In this document: piece by piece, positions 1-12,508 of the stretch
Layout of the letters: every line of letters starts with the position of its first letter
Numbering within the stretch: the stretch's first letter is position 1
Source: Trichormus sp. ATA11-4-KO1
GTDB taxonomy: Bacteria; Cyanobacteriota; Cyanobacteriia; Cyanobacteriales; Nostocaceae
NCBI GenBank assembly: GCA_019358915.1
Contig: JAHHIM010000067.1
Span: 1-12,508 of the forward strand
Direction of reading: 5' to 3'
Length of the DNA: 12,508 nucleotides
Position numbers and translations under genes: made by a program
The notes under the pieces: generated by a model
Seen by the model: only the letters and a program-made list of their open reading frames with translations
The model's database searches: none
Told to the model about the DNA's origin: nothing

Positions 1-121
1 GCAAATAATAATGAGTCTGTTTGCAATTAATGTGAGCCAACAATTTTCTTGTTTGCAATTAATGTGAGCCAACAATTTTCTTGTTTGCAAGCCGGAGCGT
101 TTATGTTTGCGAGCCGCAACA
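1..121 (-). mobile_element. Transposon end (Tn7/Tn5053-like, TGT terminus); element body lies left of the window
   Basis: Minus strand reads TGTTGCGGCTCGCAAACATAAACG... from 121. TGTTTGC motifs recur at 18, 50, 82 and 104, resembling arrayed transposase-binding sites. 65-121 is an exact inverted copy of 12290-12346. It abuts a 5'-truncated methyltransferase. Confidence 0.7.
18..90. repeat. 32-bp perfect tandem repeat (about 2.3 copies) inside the transposon end
   Basis: TGTTTGCAATTAATGTGAGCCAACAATTTTCT at 18-49 and 50-81, plus partial TGTTTGCAA at 82-90. Confidence 0.95.
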
Positions 122-1391
122 ATTAGACGCAGTAATTACTGACCCCCCATATTTTGATTCTATTTCTTACGCTAACTTATCTGATTTCTTTTACGTTTGG
201 CTAAAACGCTCAATAGGACATCTTTATCCAGAACATTTTTCGAGTCAACTAACCCCCAAGAAAAACGAAGCCATTATGGAACCTTCCCGACATGGGGGAG
301 ATAAGAAAAAAGCCGCTCAAGCCTATGAAGAAATGATGCACAAAGCATTCTGTGAAGCAAACAGAGTGCTAAAACCAAATGGCATGATGGTTGTAGTTTA
401 TGCCCACAAAACTACATCAGGCTGGTCAACATTAATTGATTCTCTCAGACGGGCAGGCTTTACCATTACCGAAGCATGGCCACTTGATACAGAAATGGGG
501 TCACGGTTACGCGGACAAAATTCAGCCGCCCTTGCTTCTAGTATTTTCCTAGTTTCTCGCAAACGCACCGAAGCCAAAATCGGCGACTATGCAATGGACG
601 TTCGCCCAGAACTCGCAGAAATCGTCCGTGACAGAGTAAAAACCCTGATGGCAGAAGGCGTTACTGGTGCTGATTTAGTCATCGCTTGCATCGGTGCAGG
701 ATTACGCGCCTACACCCAATACAACCGCGTAGAACTCCCCAACGGTGACGAATTAGACGCTAATTCCTTCCTTGACGAAGTACAAAAAGAAGTTTTAGAA
801 GCAGTTTTAACCGACGTGTTACTGTGCGATAAAAAAGGTGTTTCTGCCGTCGATAAACCGACCCAATATTACATTTTAGGACGCTACGAATACGGGGAAG
901 CTATTGTGGAGTTTGACGAAGCTAACACCTTAGCCCGTGGCGTGGGCGTAGAACTTGACGGCGCTGGTGGATTAACAGATGGCAAACTTGCACTGGTAAA
1001 GAAAACTAAAAACCAAGTGCAATTACGAGACTATACAGAACGCGGTGCAGATGCAGATTTAGGCATTCAAAAAATAGAAAAACAACAACAATTTAATGTC
1101 AAACCTCAAGCCCTTGGTACAGCACCCACATTAATAGATATTCTCCATCGCTTGCTGTGGTTACAAGAAAATAAACCCCAAGAAATTGGTAGCTTTCTCA
1201 CATTATCCCAACCAGATGCTACTCAATTGCGTCTCGTCGCCCAAGCTTTAGGAGGACGTGCGTTAACACCAGAAGCAGGTACAACAGATATTGCTAATAG
1301 TAACCGCACAAAAGAACAACAACAAATTGATACCTTGTTGGCTTCTTGGAAACGAATAGTAGAGGATAATTTATTTACACAAAGTAAGTAG
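122..1391 (+). pseudogene. 3' part of a DUF1156-type adenine-specific DNA methyltransferase, interrupted by the transposon end
   Basis: DAVITDPPYFDSISYANLSDFFYVWLKR (DPPY motif IV) directly after the junction, plus YAHK..GW and WPLDTE...ALASSIFLV motifs. No SAM-binding motif I in the window. The first 13 aa of ORF 81..1391 come from the transposon end. Confidence 0.8.
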
Positions 1392-1401
1392 TTTTGTTAG
1401 A

Positions 1402-1610
1402 TTATTGCGTTCACTATTAGCGTTCCTGTTGACGCAGCCGCCTTCTCGTAAAGGTTCCCGCAGGGTAAGGGCTAGAGTAAGGAGTGATAGCGAAGTGCAG
1501 CAACCTCTTGACGACGAGACATCAGGAGATTGCTGAGTCCTTACGGACACGATACACATAGTTTACTTCCCCGTTGCGTTAGCTTCCCGCAGGGTAGGGG
1601 TACGCAATAA
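1402..1610. repeat. Intergenic cluster of small dispersed and palindromic repeats
   Basis: Outer IR TTATTGCGT (1402-1410)/ACGCAATAA (1602-1610); TTCCCGCAGGGTA twice (1455-1467, 1584-1596); hairpin CAGCAACCTCTTGA (1498-1511)/TCAGGAGATTGCTG (1522-1535). Confidence 0.6.
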
Positions 1611-1669
1611 CAGATAAACTTTTAGTCATCATATATAATACAGATGTATTTCTTATTTCCCAATTAATT

Positions 1670-2296
1670 ATGGTACAAACAATCCAAGCGCGGGATATCA
1701 GCCTTTATGAACTAGAAGAAAAATTTGGTTTGCAATTGGTTACAAATGCTGATTTTTTCACAGAATGGACAAATGATTTACCATCCTTGAATGATGCAGA
1801 AAATTTATCCCTCAAACGAGTTAAAAGTAACTATTTAAATTTAACTCAACGTCGTCCAATGTCAGAAGAAGCAGTGAAGATGGTAGTGCTATCTCCACTG
1901 CTAGATTTAGCAGGTTTTTATCAGCCACCTTTTGAAATTGAAACTGAAAAATCTACTGATATTTCTGCTGTAGATGAAAGCATAATAGTCAAAGGTAATA
2001 TTGATGTTTTAGTAATTCAAAAACGTCTTTGGGTACTAGTTATTGAATCTAAAAGCACTAAATTTGATGTCTTAACCGCATTACCTCAAGCACTTGCTTA
2101 TATGCTTGATACCCCCAATATTGAACAACCAACGTTTGGATTACTTGTCAACGGTAGAGAGTTTGTTTTTGTCAAGCTAGTTCAGCAAGAAAAGCCAAAA
2201 TATGCTCGTTCTTATGCGTTATCAATTGAACGAGATGCAGAATTTCAACAGGTACTAAGTGTATTAAAACGCATTGGTCAATTAATTTTGTTGTAG
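1670..2296 (+). CDS. PD-(D/E)XK nuclease-fold protein, HsdR N-terminal-like (208 aa)
   Basis: SEEAVK...GNIDVLVI...VLVIESK...QALAYM...GLLVNGREFVF pattern (E..D..ExK..QxxxY). Confidence 0.75.
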   Translation: MVQTIQARDISLYELEEKFGLQLVTNADFFTEWTNDLPSLNDAENLSLKRVKSNYLNLTQRRPMSEEAVKMVVLSPLLDLAGFYQPPFEIETEKSTDISAVDESIIVKGNIDVLVIQKRLWVLVIESKSTKFDVLTALPQALAYMLDTPNIEQPTFGLLVNGREFVFVKLVQQEKPKYARSYALSIERDAEFQQVLSVLKRIGQLILL

Positions 2297-2403
2297 TCAG
2301 CACCTACAGATAATATGGCTAAAGTGACAAAGGCTAGATGCTGACGGCTACTTGTTTAAGGTGTCAAAATAGAAACAACCTCCACCTTAAAATCTAAAAT
2401 CCC

Positions 2404-5376
2404 ATGAGTAGCGCTTATCAAATAAAACCTTGGACGCAGGTAGTCACTCCTCACGCTGATATCCTAAACGGTAATTTAGATAACGCTACATACGCAGCCA
2501 GCTTAGGTGCGGTCATTCGCCAAGATTCCAAATGTCCAATCGTGTACAGGGATGCGCGTGATTTCTTCGCTGCTACCTACTTGACCACAGCGTTAAAAAA
2601 GCTACTGGAAGACGTACTAAAAGGCTTGCGGGGAGATGCAGGAGACAGGGTATTACAACTCCGCACACCCTTTGGTGGTGGTAAAACCCACTCTCTCATC
2701 AGTCTCTACCACATCACCAAAAACCGCGCTTCATTACAAGGCAACTCTCAATTAGATACTTTACCCGACCCTGGTAACGTGCGGGTTGTTTATTTTATTG
2801 GTCTGGATATTGATGTAAATACAGGTATTTTAGTAGAAGATAACTTAAGAATATTTACACCTTGGGGATATTTAGCATGGCAAATTGGTGGACATGAAGC
2901 CTATTCGCTAGTGCAAAACGCAGACCAACAATACATTGCCCCTGGTAACGATATATTACGTAAAATATTAGGCGACCAAGCCAATTTAATCCTGATAGAC
3001 GAATTGCTAATTTATATTGAAAACGCAATGGCCAAACAGGTTGGAGACTCTACCTTTGGTCGTCAAGTTCTGACTTTTATCCAAAAACTTACAGAAGTTG
3101 TCCGCGAATCTGACAAAACAGTTTTAGTTTATTCCCTACAAGCAAGTGTGGGAGAATCTTTTGGAAATGAAGGCTTATTAAGTGCTTTAGATAAATTAGT
3201 TAGCAGGATTGATGCTAAAAAAGAACCTGTTTCTGGTGATGAAGTCATGCGGGTTGTACAACGGCGTTTATTTAGCAATATTGGCGACACAAATACTATT
3301 CAAGAAATTGCCAAACAACAAGCAGATTTATTCCGCAAGTTCCGCGAAAGTTATGCAGAAACTAGCCGCGAAAAACAGCAAGTACAACAAGAAGCCGATT
3401 TATTAGCAGAAAGAATTTTATCAAGTTATCCTTTTCACCCCGACTTAATCGATTTAATGTATTACCGTTGGGGTAGCCTTCCTAGTTATCAACGGACTCG
3501 TGGTGCTTTGCAATTTTTGGCTTCGGTAACTTACGCATTGTGGCAAACACAAGATAATTCCTGGTTAATTACACCGGGTAATGTTCCTTTTGAAAATGAA
3601 GCTGCGAGAAGTTCCTTCTTTTCCCAAGTCGGCGAAAGAGATGCTTACAGCGCAGTGTTAGGTGCAGACTTAACTGGACGTAAAGCGAAGGTGAAAACAG
3701 TCGATAACCGTATTGCAACTGACGCACCAGCACTAGCACATTTAAAAGTTGGAACCCGCCTAGCTTCTGCTATTTTAATGTATTCTTTTGGAGCAAGAGG
3801 TGGGGAAGACAGAGGGGTTTTAGAACAAGATATTACAGCCGCTTGTTTAGCCCCAGGCTTAGACCGCACCACTATTACTGCTGCTTTAAGTGATCTGCGA
3901 GAACAACTACTTTATTTACATTATGTCGGTCGTCGCTATCGGTTTGAAACCAAACCCAATCTCAACAAATTAATTGCGGATGAAGAAAGCAAAATTGGTA
4001 GTGATGAAGTATTACAAAAAGTCCGCGATGAACTCACCAAAAGTTTAGGAACTCCACCCTTAACTCCTTCCCGAAACGACGAGGGGAATAATAGAGGTAA
4101 AGTTATATTGTGGGCTAAAGATTCAGCAGCAATTACCGATAAAGTACCGCACTTTAGTATCGCTTATCTTGACCCCAGTTGGGCAGAAAAAAGCAAGGAA
4201 TTAATCTTAGCTGATACTTTAGATTGGGTAGAAAATCGCGGTAACGATAAACGGGAATATAAAAATGCCCTAGCCTTTGTAGTTCCCAATAAAGCCCAAA
4301 TGGATAAAGCACGCAAAGGTGCGAGAACTGCGTTAGCAATATCTTCGCTGATTGAGCAAAAGACAAAGTATAAATTCTCCGCAGAAGATTTAGAAGAACT
4401 AAATGGTAAAGCTAAAGATGCAACCAGTGAAATTGGTGCAGCTATTCGCCGTCTTTATGACGATATCTTGTTACCGCTACCCGACACCAACGGTGAAAAC
4501 CCAGTCCGTTTAGAAAGTATTGATTTACAATCCCAACTGAACACCAGTCATAATTTGCAAGAAAGGGTACTAGATGCTCTCAAAAATCACGTTTTTGATT
4601 CAATTACTCCTGCTAAATTAATTCGCTTATCAGGCTTAGAAAATCCAGAAAAAGAATATATCACAGCAGAAGAATTAGTTAGTTATTTCTTCCGCTTTCC
4701 TAATTTTCCCAAAATGTTAGGGGTGGAGGGAATTAAAAAAGCGATTCTCAAAGCTATCGAACAAGGTCTAATAGGTTACGTACCGGCGATGACAATAAGT
4801 AGCAGTACGCCAATAGTCGAAAATCCCAGCTTAATCAGCTTTGAGAAAGTAATTCCTGCTGATGAATTAGACCTTGCTGGTTATCTTTTATCTCCGAGTT
4901 TAGTAAATAAATTGCGTACCATAGCACCTGAAAATGAAGTAGGAACAAATTCAAATGTTAGCACCAGCACAGCCTCAGATGTAGAGTCAGATAATACCAA
5001 TAATACTGACAGCGAAGGTGATACTTCTGGTGGCTTTGATAGCACCACATCAAAACCAGTTGCGAGAGTTGGAGAAGATAAAAAGACCGTTGAATATAAA
5101 TCAGAAACAAGTAGCATCGAACGCACGATTTTAACTGATATTGTTAACGGTAAACAACCTGCACGCTACTACAAATTAACTTCCGTTACCGATAAATCAA
5201 AAATATTTGAAATTTTTCAGATGTTACAGACATTATCAGATAAAGCTGAGGGAATGACTATAAAAATTGAAGTACAAGCGCACACACAAGATAAATTTGA
5301 CCCGACTTGGATACGTAATGCTATTGAAGAACCACTTGATGAAATGGATATTCAAGCATCTACACGTTTGGAGTAA
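2404..5376 (+). CDS. DUF499-family AAA+ ATPase (BREX-related / restriction-like defence system), 990 aa
   Basis: N-terminal KPWxxVVTPHxDI, Walker A TPFGGGKTH, Walker B LILIDE, YPFHP and YQRTRGAL motifs; near the DUF1156-type methylase. Confidence 0.85.
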   Translation: MSSAYQIKPWTQVVTPHADILNGNLDNATYAASLGAVIRQDSKCPIVYRDARDFFAATYLTTALKKLLEDVLKGLRGDAGDRVLQLRTPFGGGKTHSLISLYHITKNRASLQGNSQLDTLPDPGNVRVVYFIGLDIDVNTGILVEDNLRIFTPWGYLAWQIGGHEAYSLVQNADQQYIAPGNDILRKILGDQANLILIDELLIYIENAMAKQVGDSTFGRQVLTFIQKLTEVVRESDKTVLVYSLQASVGESFGNEGLLSALDKLVSRIDAKKEPVSGDEVMRVVQRRLFSNIGDTNTIQEIAKQQADLFRKFRESYAETSREKQQVQQEADLLAERILSSYPFHPDLIDLMYYRWGSLPSYQRTRGALQFLASVTYALWQTQDNSWLITPGNVPFENEAARSSFFSQVGERDAYSAVLGADLTGRKAKVKTVDNRIATDAPALAHLKVGTRLASAILMYSFGARGGEDRGVLEQDITAACLAPGLDRTTITAALSDLREQLLYLHYVGRRYRFETKPNLNKLIADEESKIGSDEVLQKVRDELTKSLGTPPLTPSRNDEGNNRGKVILWAKDSAAITDKVPHFSIAYLDPSWAEKSKELILADTLDWVENRGNDKREYKNALAFVVPNKAQMDKARKGARTALAISSLIEQKTKYKFSAEDLEELNGKAKDATSEIGAAIRRLYDDILLPLPDTNGENPVRLESIDLQSQLNTSHNLQERVLDALKNHVFDSITPAKLIRLSGLENPEKEYITAEELVSYFFRFPNFPKMLGVEGIKKAILKAIEQGLIGYVPAMTISSSTPIVENPSLISFEKVIPADELDLAGYLLSPSLVNKLRTIAPENEVGTNSNVSTSTASDVESDNTNNTDSEGDTSGGFDSTTSKPVARVGEDKKTVEYKSETSSIERTILTDIVNGKQPARYYKLTSVTDKSKIFEIFQMLQTLSDKAEGMTIKIEVQAHTQDKFDPTWIRNAIEEPLDEMDIQASTRLE

Positions 5377-5560
5377 ATTGTTAGTTTGGCACTTACTTGA
5401 TATCAAGTTTGATATATCAACAGGGATTACAATCTTCAAGGAGATATTTCTACTATTTATCCCGTCGTTGGGGTAAAAGTAGCCGTACCAGTAAAAGTTT
5501 AAAATTTCTGGGAACACTAATATCTAATGCACACCCCATATTTTTATGAGTCTACATAAT

Positions 5561-5577
5561 TGGGAGGGGCGGGAGAG
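5561..5577 (+). other. 5' half of a domain VI remnant of a second group II intron (other half at 8328-8349)
   Basis: Joining the intron flanks gives TGGGAGGGGCGGGAGAG|TAATACTCCCCCTCGACCTAAC, which parallels the resident intron's 3' end GAGAGGTGCGGCGGATAATACCGCCCATCGACTCTAC. Confidence 0.6.
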
Positions 5578-5663
5578 GTAGAGTCGATGGGCGGTATTAT
5601 CCGCCGCACCTCTCTGTTCAATCTGGGCGTGCAGGTTTTCCCAGCACCCAGCTTTCGATGTTC

Positions 5664-7172
5664 TTAGCTTTTGCTTTTGCACATATGGAGATAATCATGG
5701 CAGCTTTCGTGAATAGCTAGAAGGTTTTTGGCTTTCCAGTTATCATGGTTTCCATCGATATGATGTAGATGTACCTTCTCTTCACTGAGCATTTTTAATC
5801 CACAGTATCCACACTTATGGTTTTGCCGTTTTAAGGCTTGAGAGGTTTTCCCAAAGTAGAGTGTGCTGTTTCGCTCACTCCAGTAGGTCAGGTCTCCGTC
5901 GAAAGGCGATTTCTCCCCTTTGACATTGACGTGTTTATTTTCGGAGTAAGGAACCGATGGAAACGCTTTATCCAGCAATTTCTTGCTGGATTCACGGTCT
6001 TGATTGGATTCCTTGTTGAACACTTTGAACGCTCTGTATTGGATGTGGTACAGCTTTCGTGATCCGTCCATCTTACAGTAGCGGTGGTAGTTCCTCCAGC
6101 CTCTTACCACAGGTGCTAATTTAAGAGCCTTGGCTGTGGCACCATAATTCGAGTTGTTGACGATGTGTTTTACTTTTTTACGGAATGCTTTGAAGTTGTC
6201 TACTGAGGGGACACTTCTGAATTTCCCGTTGCTCTGCACCTTGAAGTGCCAGCCGAGGAAGTCAAATCCATCTGTCGAGGCGGTCAGCCTAGTTTTCTTT
6301 TCACTTACTTTCATCCCTCGTTGAGCGAGGAACTGGCTAATTCTTTCAAGTATTGTGTCAGCGTTGTCTTCGGGTTTAAGCAGAATTACCATGTCGTCCG
6401 CGTAGCGGACTGATGGATGTATGTCTTCTATCCCGTTGAGCGCGATGTTAGCTAATAAAGGACTCACTACTCCCCCTTGTGGGGTTCCCTGTTCGGGGTA
6501 TTCTGGGTTGACTCCTGCATTAAGGCATCGGAAGATTCCAATTTTGATACTCTTTGGGGCGATGAGTCGTTCCATGATGGCTGAGTGAGAAATTCTGTCG
6601 AAGCACGCTTCAATGTCGAGTTCAATGACTCGCTTTTTTATTCCGTTTGCGTGGGAGTTTAGGTTTATTTGTAGGATTTTTTGTGCGTCTTGCGCTCCTC
6701 GTCCTGGTCTGAAACCGTAGCTCCGAGCATGGAACGTTGCTTCGTGTGCTGGTTCCAATGCGTATTTGGCTAGACATTGCCAAGCCCTATCTGCAATGGT
6801 GGGGACTTTGAGGATTCGGGTTTTCCCTTCCTTTTTGGGGATTGGGATTTTCCGTAGTGATTGATGATACCAGTTATTGGCATTGGTTCTGAGTTTTTCA
6901 TTCAGTTCCAGTCTTTGCTTCATAGTAAGCGATGCCTTACCATCAATTCCTGCTGTCTTTTTGCCAGCGTTTAGCTGTGTTACTTGACGGATTGCCAGTA
7001 ATCTCGCTGAGGTGGATTTCAGTATCAGCCTTTGCAGGGACTGGGCTTTGTGCTTGTCTCCAACTCGAATGGCTTTATATACTCGTTTTTGTAGGCGGAA
7101 GAGGTTTTTGCGGAATTGCTTCCACGGTAAGTTCTTCCAAGATTCACTAGCATTGCTGCTGTGTCCAATCAT
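5664..7172 (-). CDS. ltrA: Group II intron reverse transcriptase/maturase with C-terminal HNH endonuclease (502 aa)
   Basis: GKKTAGIDG, PTIADR, SYGFRPGR, DIEACFD, GTPQGGVVSPLLANI, RYADD, GFDFLG, maturase RGWRNY, CGYCG...HLHHIDGNH...HESCH; GGAGG RBS upstream of the ATG. Confidence 0.93.
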   Translation of the reverse strand: MIGHSSNASESWKNLPWKQFRKNLFRLQKRVYKAIRVGDKHKAQSLQRLILKSTSARLLAIRQVTQLNAGKKTAGIDGKASLTMKQRLELNEKLRTNANNWYHQSLRKIPIPKKEGKTRILKVPTIADRAWQCLAKYALEPAHEATFHARSYGFRPGRGAQDAQKILQINLNSHANGIKKRVIELDIEACFDRISHSAIMERLIAPKSIKIGIFRCLNAGVNPEYPEQGTPQGGVVSPLLANIALNGIEDIHPSVRYADDMVILLKPEDNADTILERISQFLAQRGMKVSEKKTRLTASTDGFDFLGWHFKVQSNGKFRSVPSVDNFKAFRKKVKHIVNNSNYGATAKALKLAPVVRGWRNYHRYCKMDGSRKLYHIQYRAFKVFNKESNQDRESSKKLLDKAFPSVPYSENKHVNVKGEKSPFDGDLTYWSERNSTLYFGKTSQALKRQNHKCGYCGLKMLSEEKVHLHHIDGNHDNWKAKNLLAIHESCHDYLHMCKSKS

Positions 7173-7536
7173 GCTCTACCTCCAAGCAGGTATATTCTGA
7201 ACACCTCTGACCAATTACGGTCAGTCCTACCCGAATTGAGGGAGTTCCGCTACTCGTCCTGCCTACTTGGGGTTCGACCTCCCCTAGACCCTTAATTCGT
7301 TTTTATTCGTTCCCTCGGTGAGATTGTTTCGTTCCGTTAGGCGGAACCATTTCAGCTACTGGATTCCCTGGACTCGTGCCACTATTGTATTAATGATGTG
7401 GCGGGAATAAAGGTCTTGTCTCCAGTAAAGTCGGGGTTTTTTTGTTGCGCCCCGCTTGGGGATAAGCTGCTTTTCTAGGTTCTGTTTCACCATAGGAACT
7501 CGGGAGCAACGCGATTTTGTGAGAATTCTGCGTTCA

Positions 7537-7567
7537 AGGCAGGAGGCAGGAGGCAGGGGGCAGGAGG
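7537..7567 (+). repeat. Heptamer tandem repeat (AGGCAGG)n, left arm of the cassette
   Basis: AGGCAGG x3, GGGCAGG, AGG; complementary to the 8020-8061 arm; followed immediately by TATAAT (7568-7573). Confidence 0.9.
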
Positions 7568-7615
7568 TATAATGATCTAATTTCTCCCAACTTCCTACTT
7601 CAAACTTCTTGCGCT

Positions 7616-8013
7616 ATGAGTTACAGAGAACAATTTATTTGGCAGCGTGGTGTTAAGCTTGCCATTAACTGCTATAGACTTACCGAAAAATTCCCGAAAT
7701 CTGAACTTTACGGATTAACCCAATGAAGGCAGAAGGCAGGGGGTAGAAGGCAGGAGGAAACAACAATTTTTTCAGATATGAAACTTATAATAAGGTCTTA
7801 TTTCAACCTTCTGCCTCCTGCCTTTCAACTCCTGCCTCCGAATATATCCAATTTCTACACATTGCTTTAGGTTCGCTTCGAGAACTTGATACTCAATTGA
7901 TTATTTCTAAGGAAGTCGGATTAGCATCGCCTGAACTATTTACTCCTGTTTTGGAAGAAGTCGATAGGTTTCAAGGAATTTTAGTGTCAAGTATTCAAAA
8001 GATTAAGTCTTAA
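7616..8013 (+). pseudogene. Four-helix-bundle protein (23S rRNA IVP / TIGR02436-like), split into two out-of-frame pieces
   Basis: Not in the ORF track. 7616-7726 = MSYREQFIWQRGVKLAINCYRLTEKFPKSELYGLTQ*; 7840-8013 = EYIQFLHIALGSLRELDTQLIISKEVGLASPELFTPVLEEVDRFQGILVSSIQKIKS*. W..FPxxExYGL and FLxIAxGSxxExxTQL are family hallmarks. Confidence 0.85.
7725..7839. repeat. About 115-bp insert bounded by inverted heptamer arrays, disrupting the four-helix-bundle gene
   Basis: GAAGGCAGAAGGCAGGGGGTAGAAGGCAGGAGG, an AT-rich core, then CCTTCTGCCTCCTGCCTTTCAACTCCTGCCTCC. Confidence 0.8.
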
Positions 8014-8019
8014 AACCCT

Positions 8020-8061
8020 TCTGTCTCTTGCCTCCTGCCTCCTGCCCTCTGCCTCCTGCCT
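8020..8061 (-). repeat. Heptamer tandem repeat (CCTGCCT)n, right arm of the cassette
   Basis: TCTGTCT CTTGCCT CCTGCCT CCTGCCC TCTGCCT CCTGCCT. Confidence 0.9.
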
Positions 8062-8327
8062 CACCTCACAAAATCGCACTGCTCCCAGGAACTCCCTGTT
8101 AGCACCAGTGTCACCCCACAACGGATGTCTGTTTGCGCCCTCTTCCCAGCTTCACTCTCCAGATACCGAGTCTGGTCGGTGTGGGCAGATTAGGAGTCAT
8201 ACCTGAGCCTGGTAGACGGGGCTTTCACCCGCATTCCTCCGAGAGTTCAACCTCTTCTATTGCTAGATTTGGTTGGTGTGGTTATGTACGGACTACTTAC
8301 CATGATTCACCACACAACGAATCGCAC

Positions 8328-8349
8328 TAATACTCCCCCTCGACCTAAC
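8328..8349 (+). other. 3' half of the domain VI remnant used as the intron target
   Basis: TAATACTCCCCCTCGACCTAAC, ending in AC with A at -7. Confidence 0.6.
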
Positions 8350-8442
8350 TGCCACCCTTATTGGATTCTCCTCCTCTTTTTGCAAAATTGGGATGCTCCC
8401 CAGAGAGTGAGCGTCAATCGTGGGTTAAAAAAGCTTTTTTTC

Positions 8443-9123
8443 TTAATTGTTGTCATTGTAATAAGACATACAATCCAATTTCCTAAGTTGTCTAATTTCT
8501 ATAGGCAAATCTTCCATTTTAATTTTGTTGAGATAAAGAGTTTGCCATTTTCCCAATTTTCCCATTTCCTTTGGGAGAGTTTTAAGCTGATTATTATAGA
8601 TATTGAGAAACTCCAAGTTGATGATTTTTCCCATTTCTTTGGGCAGACTACTCAATTGATTTTCATCGATACTCAACCATCTTAAATTAATAAGTTGTCC
8701 TATTTCTGGGGGGAGGCTGCTCAATTGATTTTTTTTAAGATTCAGAAGTTCTAAATTAACAAGTTGTCCGATTTCTCTGGGTAGACTACTTAGTTGGTTA
8801 TTGGCTAGATAAAGTTCACGCAAGTTACTTAGTTGTCCGATTTCTCTGGGCAGACTACTTAAACAGTTTCCAATAACAAAAAGTTCTTCAAGATTCTTCA
8901 GAAATCCAATTTCTGGAGGCAAATGCGTCAGGCAATTTCCTATGATACCAACAATAGCTCTATCTTTACCATATTCATATTTACCTAGAATCAATGTCTT
9001 GAGTTGAGTTAGTTTGCTAATTTCTGGAGGTAAAGCTGTTAACTCTTTTCCAGAAAGATCAAGTTCCTGAGCATCCTGTATTACTGCTTGCTCAATTACT
9101 TGTAGTAATTCTTTCTCAGTCAT
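8443..9123 (-). CDS. Leucine-rich repeat protein (226 aa), similar to the N-terminus of cyanobacterial LRR-Roc-COR proteins
   Basis: 23-aa repeats LxxLxLxxNQLSSLPxEIGQL; N-cap MTEKELLQVIEQA...ELDLSG; no GTPase domain. Confidence 0.88.
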   Translation of the reverse strand: MTEKELLQVIEQAVIQDAQELDLSGKELTALPPEISKLTQLKTLILGKYEYGKDRAIVGIIGNCLTHLPPEIGFLKNLEELFVIGNCLSSLPREIGQLSNLRELYLANNQLSSLPREIGQLVNLELLNLKKNQLSSLPPEIGQLINLRWLSIDENQLSSLPKEMGKIINLEFLNIYNNQLKTLPKEMGKLGKWQTLYLNKIKMEDLPIEIRQLRKLDCMSYYNDNN

Positions 9124-9434
9124 GGGTAGTTAATAATGGTTGACATTATATTTTAATTTATATTTCAGCAATAAACATTTCTGTTTTATGTGTTGTACTG
9201 AATTCTTTAGACAGATTGTTGTGTTCAGTAAAATAGTGGCGTGTCCGATAAAGCACTTAATGTAGTTCTGTGTGGACACAACTAATGCTTAAGATAAACA
9301 GAACCCAGGCAGCACCTCCCGTAGAAGCTACAACCCTGATTCTTTCGTTAAAAAGTTATTTGACTTTGGTGGGCGGTTACACCATCGCTAATCGCGTGCT
9401 GATTCCTCTGGTGTAAAATTTGGTATAGAAATAT

Positions 9435-10004
9435 TCAAAAATCCAAAGCAGAGATAGCGTTTTGCTTCTGCTTCTCAGTCACCCCCAGATAACGTTCCAA
9501 AGCTGCCAAAGTCCGATGCCCCGATATCTCCTGAATATGGCGCAACGGTATCCCCGCATCGCTCATCCTGGTTAACGCCGTCCTGCGAAAGCTGTGGGTA
9601 CTCACGCCCTCAATCCCCAGCCGCGCACAGGTATCTCTGAGGATTTTGTCAGCACTCACCTTGTGGATATGCCCCAACCCATGCCGTCCCGGAAACAAGA
9701 ACTCCTTGCGGCGGTTGGGGTTGTACTCTTCCAAATATTGCTTCAGCTTGGGATGCACTCGAATTTCCCTGGTGTCCCGCTTGCCTTTGGTGTTGACGCT
9801 ACGTAACACCAACACCCCTCTCACACCGTGACTCCCAAACACATCTAGAACTGCCAACGTGCAAGCCTCATTGATTCGGCAAGCAGCATAAAGGCACACG
9901 CCAAATAGAGCGCGATCGCGCGGGTTGACAAACCCCTCAGTAAATAGGACATTAATTTGATCGGGGGTAAGGATTTCTGCTCTACCGAAGCGGTTTATTT
10001 TCAT
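9435..10004 (-). CDS. Small tyrosine recombinase (catalytic domain only, 189 aa)
   Basis: Likely start MKINRFGRAEILT at 10004; catalytic R (ACRINE), K (TKG), HxxR (HSFRR), H (SGH) and Y (ERY). Confidence 0.9.
   Translation of the reverse strand: MKINRFGRAEILTPDQINVLFTEGFVNPRDRALFGVCLYAACRINEACTLAVLDVFGSHGVRGVLVLRSVNTKGKRDTREIRVHPKLKQYLEEYNPNRRKEFLFPGRHGLGHIHKVSADKILRDTCARLGIEGVSTHSFRRTALTRMSDAGIPLRHIQEISGHRTLAALERYLGVTEKQKQNAISALDF
9912..9919. other. HIP1 octamer GCGATCGC
   Basis: Direct match; the only copy I noticed in the window. Confidence 0.8.
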
Positions 10005-10393
10005 AGGGTCTAGCTTACATGATCTTCTTGCCGAAACACAATGTATGTGACCGAAAACCCTATGCTCTCGTGAGCAATGACACACGATTAACACAGACTT
10101 ATCATTCAGCCCGACTGCACGAACGCTACAATCCGCATTCTTTCGTTAGCTGATTAAACTTGCTTATGCTTGCAGCACAGTAGACAGTTGGAGGTATAAT
10201 CCGCATTAATAGGATTCGCTCATGTTGCGGCTGTCTCAACTGTCTACACTCGCTTCTATACCGCAGCTTGATAAATCATTGCTATCAAGCAAGTGATATC
10301 AACGTTTGCCAGCAGTCCCAGTCTCAGATTTTCACACTCAGCAGTCTGCCTGCACCAACATCCACACGGCTGTCTATACCGAAACCCAAGACT

Positions 10394-11194
10394 TTACTCT
10401 GTGCGCTCCTGTTCTGTAGGGGTTTGATAATTTACTACTTCTTTTGTAAGTTCCTCAACCGATAAATCAACTCCCTTTGCTACTTCGGAGATGCTGTAGC
10501 CCATGCTCAAAAAGCGTGCTGCTGCTTTTAATTTGGTTTCACGTTCCAAGTCTTTGTAAATTCGTGTTTCTTCAATGTTCAGTCCCAGCATAGCTTCCAC
10601 TTCCTCTCTACTCAACGAAGAAAATTTGTAAACAGCAATTGTGGTGATAATATCTATTATCTCGTTTTTCGGCAGTGTGCCAGTTGACTCTAATTGTACT
10701 CGCTCAATTAATAGACGCGCTTGCTCTGCCATCGTTTTATCTGATGCTAGAGTCAACTGCATTAAATTGATGCCTATTGGCAGAGTATCGGGATTACCTA
10801 ACTCATCCAAATAAATGCGTTGCACTTGGTCGCTGTTTAAAAATATGCGATGAGTTCTTGTATCGCTCGGTTCTAAACTGCGTGATGGGAAAATTACCAC
10901 ACAGTACCAGTCATCGTAGAAAGACCGATTCCGGTTCAAATACATCATTGATTCGGTAAAAAACCGATGATACAAACCTTCATCTTTTTGGAACTGAACT
11001 TCTGCAAAAAATATAACTTTGGTTGTTGCACCCTCTGGAGGTAAAAAGACCCCATCAATGCGAAAGGCGGTTTCTTTCACCTCAACCGACTCAAATCGAT
11101 AGTTCTGTGCCTGTTCAGGGCGGTCATCAACGAGTTCAAAAATTAACGCAGGGAAGCGTTTAAATATTTGGTAATAAATGGAGTCGCGTTTCAC
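10394..11194 (-). CDS. Rpn-family recombination-promoting nuclease / DUF2887 protein (266 aa)
   Basis: MKRDSIYYQIF, FESVEVKETAFRIDGVF, FAEVQFQKD, YKFSSLSREEVEAML and a C-terminal HTH-like tail; GTG start. Confidence 0.85.
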   Translation of the reverse strand: MKRDSIYYQIFKRFPALIFELVDDRPEQAQNYRFESVEVKETAFRIDGVFLPPEGATTKVIFFAEVQFQKDEGLYHRFFTESMMYLNRNRSFYDDWYCVVIFPSRSLEPSDTRTHRIFLNSDQVQRIYLDELGNPDTLPIGINLMQLTLASDKTMAEQARLLIERVQLESTGTLPKNEIIDIITTIAVYKFSSLSREEVEAMLGLNIEETRIYKDLERETKLKAAARFLSMGYSISEVAKGVDLSVEELTKEVVNYQTPTEQERTE

Positions 11195-11363
11195 TAAAAA
11201 ATCTCAAAAAAACTGGTTATTTAGTTATTAATTTTAACCCAGGATTGATATTATTTATAGTTTTAAATTATGTTATTTAATTTTATTTCTGATAGATAAT
11301 AAATCTGGCAAATAATTTGTTTGCTTGCCTCTGGGATTCCAAAGGAGGATATTTCGTGGTTAT

Positions 11364-11651
11364 TTAAGGTAATATAGGATTAATTATTACTTTTTCTGAG
11401 TTTGATATTCTCCTATCTTTAGTCAAATTATTATTAATTAGTTTTTGATAATTATGTAAACTATGATTTACGAAATTTTGAGTTATGCTTTCAATGGAAC
11501 TTTTAATTATAAAATTACTATCTTTATAGATATTACCTACCGCTAGAATCATAATACATAGCATTCCCATAGAAAAATAACGTAGTGCTGAACGATATAA
11601 ATCAATCATAAAATCAGTTACCCGGTCATTATAATCTTGACATTTGAGCAT
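11364..11651 (-). CDS. Hypothetical protein with one hydrophobic segment, probably a 3' gene fragment
   Basis: 95-aa ORF with YFSMGMLCIMILAVG; starts next to the point where the ATP-grasp gene breaks off. Confidence 0.35.
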   Translation of the reverse strand: MLKCQDYNDRVTDFMIDLYRSALRYFSMGMLCIMILAVGNIYKDSNFIIKSSIESITQNFVNHSLHNYQKLINNNLTKDRRISNSEKVIINPILP

Positions 11652-11655
11652 ATCA

Positions 11656-12075
11656 TTACATAATATTTATTGTCAGCCCTAATCTCTTTGCACGACTCAG
11701 TTGTTCTAACTTAGATGAAGCTAAGGCATTGTTTTTTGGATGGTTAATCCATAATTCAGCAGGAATATGCGACAGAAATCCTTCAATAGCTGCACTCCAT
11801 TCACTACGAGTATGTGCTTGCTCACCCTTCTCAAAATATTCACTTGCTGGAAGCTTAAGTGGCTGTGGCCTCCTGTACCATACAGAAGTTATTTCCTCTG
11901 GCACTAACTTCCGATGACCTAAAGAAAGTGATAGTTTGTTAGGTCGAAATAGCAACTCTGCTTTTCCGATTAGCTCATCAGTATTTAGTCTGACGTAATC
12001 ACATCTATTTTGCTCTAGTTTAGAACAAACATAGTCTACTGTCACATCTAATGAATTTGAAAGAACTACTATCAT
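11656..12075 (-). pseudogene. N-terminal half of an ATP-grasp RiPP maturase (MvdC/MvdD-like graspetide synthetase), truncated
   Basis: DxTxDxV, RLNTD, SVWYRRP, WINHP, SKLEQLSRAKRLGLTI; ends at 139 aa just where 'IPxTL' and the ATP-grasp core should begin. Confidence 0.8.
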
Positions 12076-12084
12076 TCAACTCTG

Positions 12085-12289
12085 CTATCTTGGAATCACA
12101 GTGAACTTTGTGTATGAGTAATCAATATCAGGATTTTCTCGCACTCTTGTTGAAGTTTGAGTTCCACGATTATCTGGATCTTGATCTAGTTCCTCACGAG
12201 AATCTGTATGAGTTTGAGTGCCAAGTAGAATATCACTTGAGTGAGTGTTTCCCTTTTCCTGAAACACTTTTTCTTGATATAAAGATATG
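12085..12289 (-). pseudogene. Graspetide (omega-ester peptide) precursor with two cores, 5' end replaced by the transposon end
   Basis: GTQTHTDSREELDQD and GTQTSTRVRENPDID (TxTxTxxRExxDxD, 19-aa period); the stop lies 9 nt upstream of the ATP-grasp start. Confidence 0.75.
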
Positions 12290-12352
12290 TGTTGCGGCTC
12301 GCAAACATAAACGCTCCGGCTTGCAAACAAGAAAATTGTTGGCTCAAATTAA
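12290..12352 (+). mobile_element. Second, inverted copy of the same transposon end
   Basis: 12290-12346 is identical to the reverse complement of 65-121; one mismatch follows, then ATTAA matches to 12352, where similarity stops abruptly. Confidence 0.8.
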
Positions 12353-12508
12353 GGGTCTTGGCAACTTTTGGTGATCTTGGCTGGGGGAAGGCAGAGGGCA
12401 GAGGGCAGAAGGCAGAAGTCGGAAGAGTAGAAGTAATAATTTCAACCCTTGAGTTTGTTTAAAGTAGCAACTAATATACTTTGCATTTCCTCAACCTCAT
12501 TCAAGATG
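12353..12508. mobile_element. Probable second MITE-like heptamer/four-helix-bundle cassette, partial, inserted in the transposon end
   Basis: Starts GGGTCTTGGCAACTTTTGGTGA at the breakpoint, followed by GGCAGA(G/A) x4 at about 12389-12416 and then a gene 3' end. Confidence 0.6.
12442..12508 (-). CDS. 3' end of a four-helix-bundle protein gene (runs off the window)
   Basis: Translates ILNEVEEMQSILVATLNKLKG*, colinear with VLEEVDRFQGILVSSIQKIKS* of the 7840-8013 fragment. Confidence 0.7.
   Translation of the reverse strand, partial: ILNEVEEMQSILVATLNKLKG

Follow-up and report, generated by a model that had tools for sequence, protein, structure and literature searches.

The window, by which we mean the whole stretch of DNA that was analysed (12,508 nt of Trichormus sp. 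ATA11-4-KO1, assembly GCA_019358915.1, contig JAHHIM010000067.1, positions 1-12,508, forward strand), holds a group II intron that has itself been entered by a mobile element. The intron lies on the minus strand at 5578-8327 (2750 nt with the insert, 2157 nt without), begins with GTGCG at 8327, occurs once in the source genome and is of class IIB2 (CL2-type), its nt 13-80 falling between I(i) and I(ii) as in the criterion that the accessible part of PMC4649490 gives for IIB2. It encodes an open 502-aa RT/maturase (5664-7172, minus strand; RVT_N/RVT_1/GIIM) in which YADD and a C-terminal HNH-like motif can be recognised by eye, and which reaches 278.5 bits against TIGR04416 (cut-off 300). Domains V and VI (5578-5656, minus strand) match Rfam RF00029, EBS1 (TAATAC, 7387-7392, minus strand) pairs at 6/6 positions with IBS1 (8333-8328) in the 5' exon, EBS2 (7458-7462, minus strand; assigned by eye) pairs with IBS2 (8338-8334) and alpha-alpha' is intact, while a candidate G/C pair for EBS3 fits this intron and not all of its relatives. 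The original prediction, made from the sequence of the window, was thus right in calling the RT ORF, domains V/VI and EBS1 intact.

Brought together, the two flanks of the intron (5557-5577 and 8328-8349, plus strand) form a domain VI-like hairpin, left over from another group II intron of opposite orientation, and on contig C39 (G000:C39, about 30890-30960) a domain V-like sequence is followed by a similar empty target site. Homing takes this intron, in antisense orientation, into a domain VI loop that belongs to a different group II intron; homing of introns into other introns is known (PMC4424553, in the part available). No long reading frame runs across the target site, no host gene depends on the splicing of this intron and the intron is intergenic. 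Two arrangements among its relatives deserve mention: a twintron (L159) with one intron of the family inside the RT-frame start of another, and three introns (L151, L236, L242) whose 5' exon ends in AAGAAAGGCAGAGGGC, the beginning of a heptamer arm, and which appear to home into heptamer-armed elements. As for the surroundings, 81-5376 encodes a DUF1156 methylase fragment, an HSDR_N protein and a DUF499 ATPase (all below NCBIfam cut-offs) resembling an anti-phage gene set, and 8443-12075 is a mobile, decaying neighbourhood with a short LRR protein, a tyrosine recombinase, an Rpn-family protein and a truncated ATP-grasp maturase. There is a 32-bp tandem duplication at 18-81, both contig ends begin the same reading frame and they share a 63-bp inverted match (98%; window 59-121 and 12290-12352), which is a repeat or an assembly edge.

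The inserted element measures 585 bp (7502-8086), enters after intron nt 241 and is flanked by the exact 8-bp TSD AGGAACTC (7494-7501 and 8087-8094), a duplication with a chance of about 1.5e-5 for an exact 8-mer. Size, 22-bp TIRs, perfect TSD and a position some 240 nt from the intron 5' end (8327) are all as first described. The left TIR (7502-7523, plus strand) and the right TIR (8065-8086, minus strand) are complementary at 20/22 positions, and between them outer heptamer arms (left, AGGCAGG-type, 4.4 units, 7537-7567, plus strand; right, inverted, 8017-8062, minus strand) enclose a four-helix-bundle gene that runs antisense to the intron and is interrupted by a 119-nt heptamer-armed hairpin (7720-7838; arms about 7725-7757 and 7807-7838), so that the three nested inverted-repeat pairs predicted for the element are present. 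A TATAAT box had also been reported and does lie at 7568-7573 (plus strand), where most family copies retain it; it has no -35 match, however, and a sigma-70 scan of 7300-8500 returned 0 promoters (1.5 expected by chance), which leaves it as a putative promoter. The element occurs once in the source genome, a left-end scan of the metagenome collection matched only the window's own contig, and Rfam matched only the intron over the window, the element not lying within a 23S rRNA gene.

Was this a 'gene-carrying' MITE, as claimed? Not at this locus, where the gene is a pseudogene. Its 5' part (7616-7726, plus strand) runs from the ATG at 7616 to a TGA at 7724-7726, i.e., 36 codons, and its 3' part (7840-8013, plus strand, 57 codons) continues in another frame, so that positions 3-33 and 56-105 of PF05635 fall in different frames and the copy has no full-length PF05635/TIGR02436 domain above cut-off. 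Compared with an intact 116-aa relative, coding nt 105-176 (72 nt) have been swapped for the 119-nt hairpin, and the copy is without the most conserved 24 codons of the gene. The intact relative itself is above cut-off for PF05635 and TIGR02436 (124 and 128 bits) and matches XCC0516 (2GSC) at 3e-23. The relationship to Avd proposed for this fold is real, Avd-PF05635 homology being stated in the accessible text of PMC10053308, but it is distant: the intact relative scores 21.4 bits against the Avd model NF033474 (cut-off 80, E 2e-4) and 15.2 bits against PF22296 (cut-off 40). A search for free copies of the inner hairpin gave matches in 2/5 genomes, both within sister elements, and, on a wider set, in 8/127 genomes, where five are weak AT-rich matches and only one (L256) is a half hairpin that lies away from the gene.

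The element belongs to a family, which we followed in 389 Nostocaceae genomes, a collection with one genome per species in which a spread of the composite among strains would escape notice. The left-end pattern occurs at 25 places in 20/389 genomes; ten of these left ends belong to complete elements with a TIR at either end (414-733 bp, that of the window among them), and for the other 15 no right TIR follows within 1.5 kb. The intact gene found matches in at least 38/389 genomes, a lower bound as two candidates were scored per genome, and the 30 loci returned included two further complete elements. There are thus at least 12 complete elements in 10 genomes of four genera, at differing flanks, with exact 8-9-bp TSDs in 9/12, and the four genera share the family at 92-100% identity. 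In one element (L174) the cassette is inverted between the same ends, and free copies of the cassette, which keep the heptamer arms and lack TIRs, exist as well (e.g., L196-L198, L200, L201, L205, L211, L212, L214). A tree of 25 coding sequences, in which the inverted group has 54% support (no clade test), suggests two captures, of a forward and of an inverted cassette, and one escape (L196). Two side observations concern the ends: a chimera (L003/L182) of left TIR, inner hairpin and gene 3' half, which closes with the end of another repeat, preceded by a longer heptamer arm, and points to exchange via the heptamer arms, and a lone, slightly altered left end that six Nostocaceae genomes (L165, L171, L173, L181, L185, L186) share as a fixed feature at an orthologous position, in front of one conserved gene.

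The gene is intact (116 aa) in 4/12 complete elements and broken in 8/12. Among the ten left-end elements, 31 synonymous and 7 non-synonymous distinct variants are seen (23% of sites are synonymous; as kin share variants, a binomial P overstates the contrast), or 17 and 6 by hand count once variants private to the divergent L174 are removed, and judged by these counts the family's gene is under purifying selection. The breaks recur in mid-gene across the family. One element elsewhere (L180) has a related but diverged hairpin that ends at the same base as in the window copy, and since it has its own 9-bp TSD, broken forms must transpose. In two others (L169, L003) the hairpin ends 2-3 nt away and the gene 5' half is also lost, one (L172) has a 186-nt heptamer insert, and seven copies (L195, L196, L199, L200, L201, L202, L254) have a 22-23-nt insert at one place near codon 50. 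This last insert, which resembles the small dispersed repeats of Nostoc and may be of their kind, breaks the gene in TIR-bound as well as in free cassettes.

A candidate mobiliser resides in the same genome, where the search for a transposase with the same TIR, as originally proposed, turned up a 1979-bp IS (C19:79586-81564) with an open 496-aa transposase frame. Its ends are 0-3 mismatches from those of the element, the left TIR being 22/22 identical to the right end of the IS, and the genome also contains two 171-bp same-TIR MITEs with 8-bp TSDs. More broadly, the TIR pattern occurs in at least 123 stretches of the genome collection, and the 122 loci examined among the matches listed comprise MITEs (148-251 bp), which are common, and full-length elements (1925-1985 bp); 8-9-bp TSDs accompany most of those that are complete. 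The guess that the transposase would be of IS1/IS1595 type was wrong, as no IS1/IS1595 model of Pfam or NCBIfam matches it. It scores 104.8 bits against the ISKra4 model (cut-off 205), with an E of 5e-30 that still shows homology, and 38.1 bits against the ISLre2 model (cut-off 200), and close relatives are labelled 'ISLre2 family transposase' in RefSeq. Element and IS share with the p-MULT (Mutator-like) elements, to which the available part of PMC3942029 assigns IRs of 18-39 bp with a terminal C and DRs of 8-9 bp, the IR length (22 bp), the terminal C and the 8-9-bp DRs, together with a related DDE transposase. The partner IS is a Mutator-like element, probably of ISKra4/ISLre2 type, the transposase of which nevertheless falls under both NCBIfam cut-offs. 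All this supports the view of the element as non-autonomous, with its partner transposase in the same genome, and from the common ends we infer that it would be mobilised in trans by a C19-like IS transposase.

Mobile insertion cassettes, such as MIC231 of Bacillus cereus, combine IS-derived TIRs, a TSD and a passenger gene with the lack of a transposase and are mobilised in trans, and the window family has the same make-up, with the putative trans mobilisation just described. Passenger-carrying MITEs such as IMU share these traits (PMC3184786, in part). The differences from MIC231 and IMU are that the ends come from a Mutator-like IS, that the passenger is itself a heptamer-armed cassette also found free and that most of its genes (eight of twelve) are broken. 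Closer to home, the Nezha MITE and ISNpu3 of Anabaena/Nostoc are an example of cyanobacterial MITEs (about 130-170 bp) that have their TIRs in common with an IS, and the same-TIR MITEs found here resemble them in this make-up; unlike the window family, no cargo gene is mentioned for them in the accessible parts of PMC3184786 and PMC3049150. With TIRs and TSD, no internal transposase, a same-end IS in the genome and unrelated sites, the family has the hallmarks of MITEs and cassettes alike, but since a classical MITE has no coding gene and 4/12 copies have an intact one, 'cassette' is the better name. A literature search, with subscription journals and ISfinder outside its scope, found no four-helix-bundle cassette between IS ends among the papers listed; the gene-carrying family seems not to have been described before, and its new part is the capture of heptamer-armed four-helix-bundle cassettes between IS ends.

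How old is the insertion? The 5' 241 nt of the intron are matched in 196/389 genomes, and an alignment with insert-free copies, proposed at the outset as a check, covered relatives at 52 loci (29 + 19 + 4; 54 spanning copies, 51 distinct): at the insertion site the 51 show 2 extra nt at most, and within the aligned pieces no insertion exceeds 8 nt. Four metagenome runs were compared, the first (X1) probably from the source and the others (X2-X4) from one soil study. Two of the soil runs (X2 and X4) contain an empty intron about 98-99% identical to that of the window (joint 7493>8087), and since cover in X2-X4 breaks off no more than about 17 nt from the intron ends, the empty soil introns lie at other loci. 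X3 has a loose end in the empty junction; a loose end of that run also shows a domain V-like sequence adjoining the same intron target. Window and soil alleles are compared here by 25 of the differences listed, those from the main soil contigs, 15 from minor, more divergent contigs being dropped, and the RT frame shows 14 synonymous and 6 non-synonymous changes. Two domain I changes peculiar to the window copy, C26U (outgroups 15/15 C) and C186G (outgroups 17/18 C), each weaken a conserved pair, which qualifies the description of the intron as 'otherwise intact' that RT, domains V/VI and EBS1 would justify; of the other domain I differences, two are changes of the soil allele and one can be read either way. 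These differences appear too few to call decay, and the insertion looks recent. Decay of introns where they stand is known from bacteria (PMC4496777, in the part available).

The structural setting was worked out on domain I helices from an alignment of 17 introns. Seven chosen helices pair in 98.4% of cells and 14/35 pairs are changed on both sides, figures that flatter the structure since it was derived from the same sequences; IC basal has 0 compensatory changes, and two pairs of ID(i) have one each. The element sits at the IC/ID junction, which is length-invariant in all 51 copies and has no spare nucleotide. Its TSD (intron nt 234-241) takes in the closing part of the IC basal 3' strand, then the 5' strand of ID(i), and finally the U that opens the UAUGG/CCUAAC motif, which we take to be the zeta tetraloop receptor, with the insertion adjoining it. 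Each TSD copy can, in the model, supply one flanking helix: the copy upstream in the intron RNA (8087-8094) completes the IC basal 3' strand (8096-8093), and the 5' strand of ID(i) (7499-7495) and the U that opens the receptor (7494) come from the downstream copy (7494-7501).

Put together, these observations are probably best read as a one-off insertion of a broken cassette into the core of an intergenic intron, the composite being most likely a dead end. A single insertion, with its 8-bp duplication, hit the IC/ID junction of domain I in a IIB2 intron; the four-helix-bundle gene would have been broken already before the jump, and the transposase supplied in trans by an IS like that on contig C19. 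The host would tolerate the insertion since none of its genes relies on splicing of this intron, and with a 593-nt branch at the junction, splicing and retrohoming are probably reduced or lost, which would make the composite a dead end; the cargo would have no role for the intron RT. The intron is more likely the victim of the element than its carrier. The broken second group II intron of the genome and the related intron cut short in L081, both described below, speak for this reading, as does L180, a broken form that has moved. One point against a dead end is the RT frame, which is without decay.

That splicing survives in some form, the 593-nt hairpin standing on the domain I junction whole or clipped by RNase III, is unlikely in our view, although it would have consequences of its own. 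If it were true, splicing with the insert would mean a so far unexploited position in domain I for cargo or for a split (splits of LtrB worked best in domain IV according to the accessible part of bioRxiv 10.64898/2026.10.20.760490), an IVS-type element would survive in a second kind of structured RNA, and RNase III clipping would leave a natural two-piece ribozyme.

In the first form, which we consider improbable, the intron would still splice with a stem of about 54 pairs at the IC/ID junction, the maturase aiding its folding, and could retrohome with its 593-nt passenger. The insert can indeed fold out as one stem, as originally predicted: it folds independently as a single hairpin (-220 kcal/mol vs -163 +/- 8 for 20 shuffles, z -7), the TIR stem has a probability of 0.99 and the insert hardly pairs with the intron (0.05 nt). 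Under constraints that keep the other domain I helices in place, the helices on either side of the insert both form (IC basal 0.97 and ID(i) 1.0 with the insert, 0.71 and 0.78 without), so that the insert does not break an essential domain I helix, and relative to the free minimum the canonical fold costs 6.8 kcal/mol if the insert is present and 8.4 kcal/mol if it is absent. The intact EBS1, alpha-alpha', domains V/VI and RT frame point the same way. However, an 8-bp TSD leaves every helix strand whole at 423/423 positions tested, so intact helices say nothing about this site, and secondary-structure compatibility was rejected by this control as a sign of a tolerated site. (A folding-cost scan of 34 other sites, with one TSD register each, was discarded, as it gave 14.7 kcal/mol at the real site vs 6.8 in a better register.) Against splicing also stand (i) the invariant length of the junction, (ii) the free fold, in which the two TSD copies pair together and IC basal drops from 0.60 to 0.36, (iii) the five-way junction, which orients all main D1 stems in a IIC intron (PMC3964913, in the part available) and by analogy may do so in IIB2 and (iv) the uniqueness of the composite, an insert-bearing intron being found at this site and no second one in the data searched. 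The predicted carriage of the cargo by the intron has, with a single copy in the genome and every relative examined without the insert, little to recommend it.

In the second form, for which we see still poorer prospects, RNase III would clip the stem as in rRNA IVSs, and the ribozyme would then consist of two pieces that helices I(i), I(ii), IC and ID(i) keep together; splicing might survive, and the nick would stop reverse transcription, so that the cargo would not be carried. This reading is wholly inferred, from the 54-pair outer duplex, from trans-spliced group II introns, which exist (PMC4424553, in part), and from the S23p IVS in 23S rRNA of Coxiella, which, according to the accessible part of PMC4990558, has the same gene family (PF05635), heptamer repeats and a 28-bp terminal stem, and is excised by RNase III. 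The Coxiella IVS also resembles the window element in lying inside a structured RNA with a decaying gene (PMC4990558), although the latter is in a group II intron, antisense, and has IS ends and a TSD. Two other systems invite comparison. The hairpin MITE of Thiomargarita nelsonii also lies within a self-splicing intron, but, in the part of PMC4853749 available, this is a group I intron of an essential host gene, the peripheral P9 region is hit and there is no cargo gene; and the Trichodesmium twintron T.e.I7/I8 shares the IIB2 host and a large domain I insert, but its inner element splices itself out first (PMC4649490, in part), which the window insert cannot do. No MITE in group II domain I came up among the papers listed by our literature search, subscription journals being outside its scope.

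A preference of the transposase for group II introns as targets is very doubtful, even though both RT-bearing group II introns of the genome hold a same-TIR element. The second of these introns (G000:C28:19900-22650, L251) has its RT frame broken by a 171-bp same-TIR MITE with 8-bp TSD and by a heptamer-armed hairpin of about 195 bp, and in a third case (L081:2368-2600) a related intron stops at nt 132, followed by a same-TIR heptamer-armed end, the rest being missing. Only 1/122 TIR loci listed from other genomes touches an intron (73 being longer than 2 kb), which does not support such a preference, none of the 11 sister elements is inside an intron (a partial copy, L166, sits about 800 nt beyond an intron's end) and survival in neutral DNA explains the remaining cases.

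The idea that selection favoured the insertion because the intron RT has in the four-helix-bundle protein a partner like Avd is hardly credible and, at this locus, already largely refuted: distant homology to Avd (PMC10053308) and apparent purifying selection on the family's gene speak for it, but the window copy cannot make the protein, its gene is antisense to the intron, and neither the 11 other complete elements (probed with two local intron families; no RT or intron in about 1.5 kb of flank) nor the free cassettes have an RT within about 1.5 kb, and a functional link between cargo and RT, called speculative from the start, is not supported.

The one-off insertion that we prefer nevertheless makes this locus useful. 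If the intron is dead, its part in the story is ordinary nesting of mobile DNA, but because an empty allele about 98-99% identical exists, the locus is a ready natural test of long-branch tolerance at the IC/ID junction of a IIB ribozyme. As for the cargo, heptamer-armed four-helix-bundle cassettes are widespread, and one lineage is seen here with an explicit route, made of IS ends, TSDs and a same-genome transposase. In that lineage the protein appears to be kept under purifying selection, yet the gene is broken in its middle again and again, which makes this element family a small and tractable unit for asking what the four-helix-bundle protein does.
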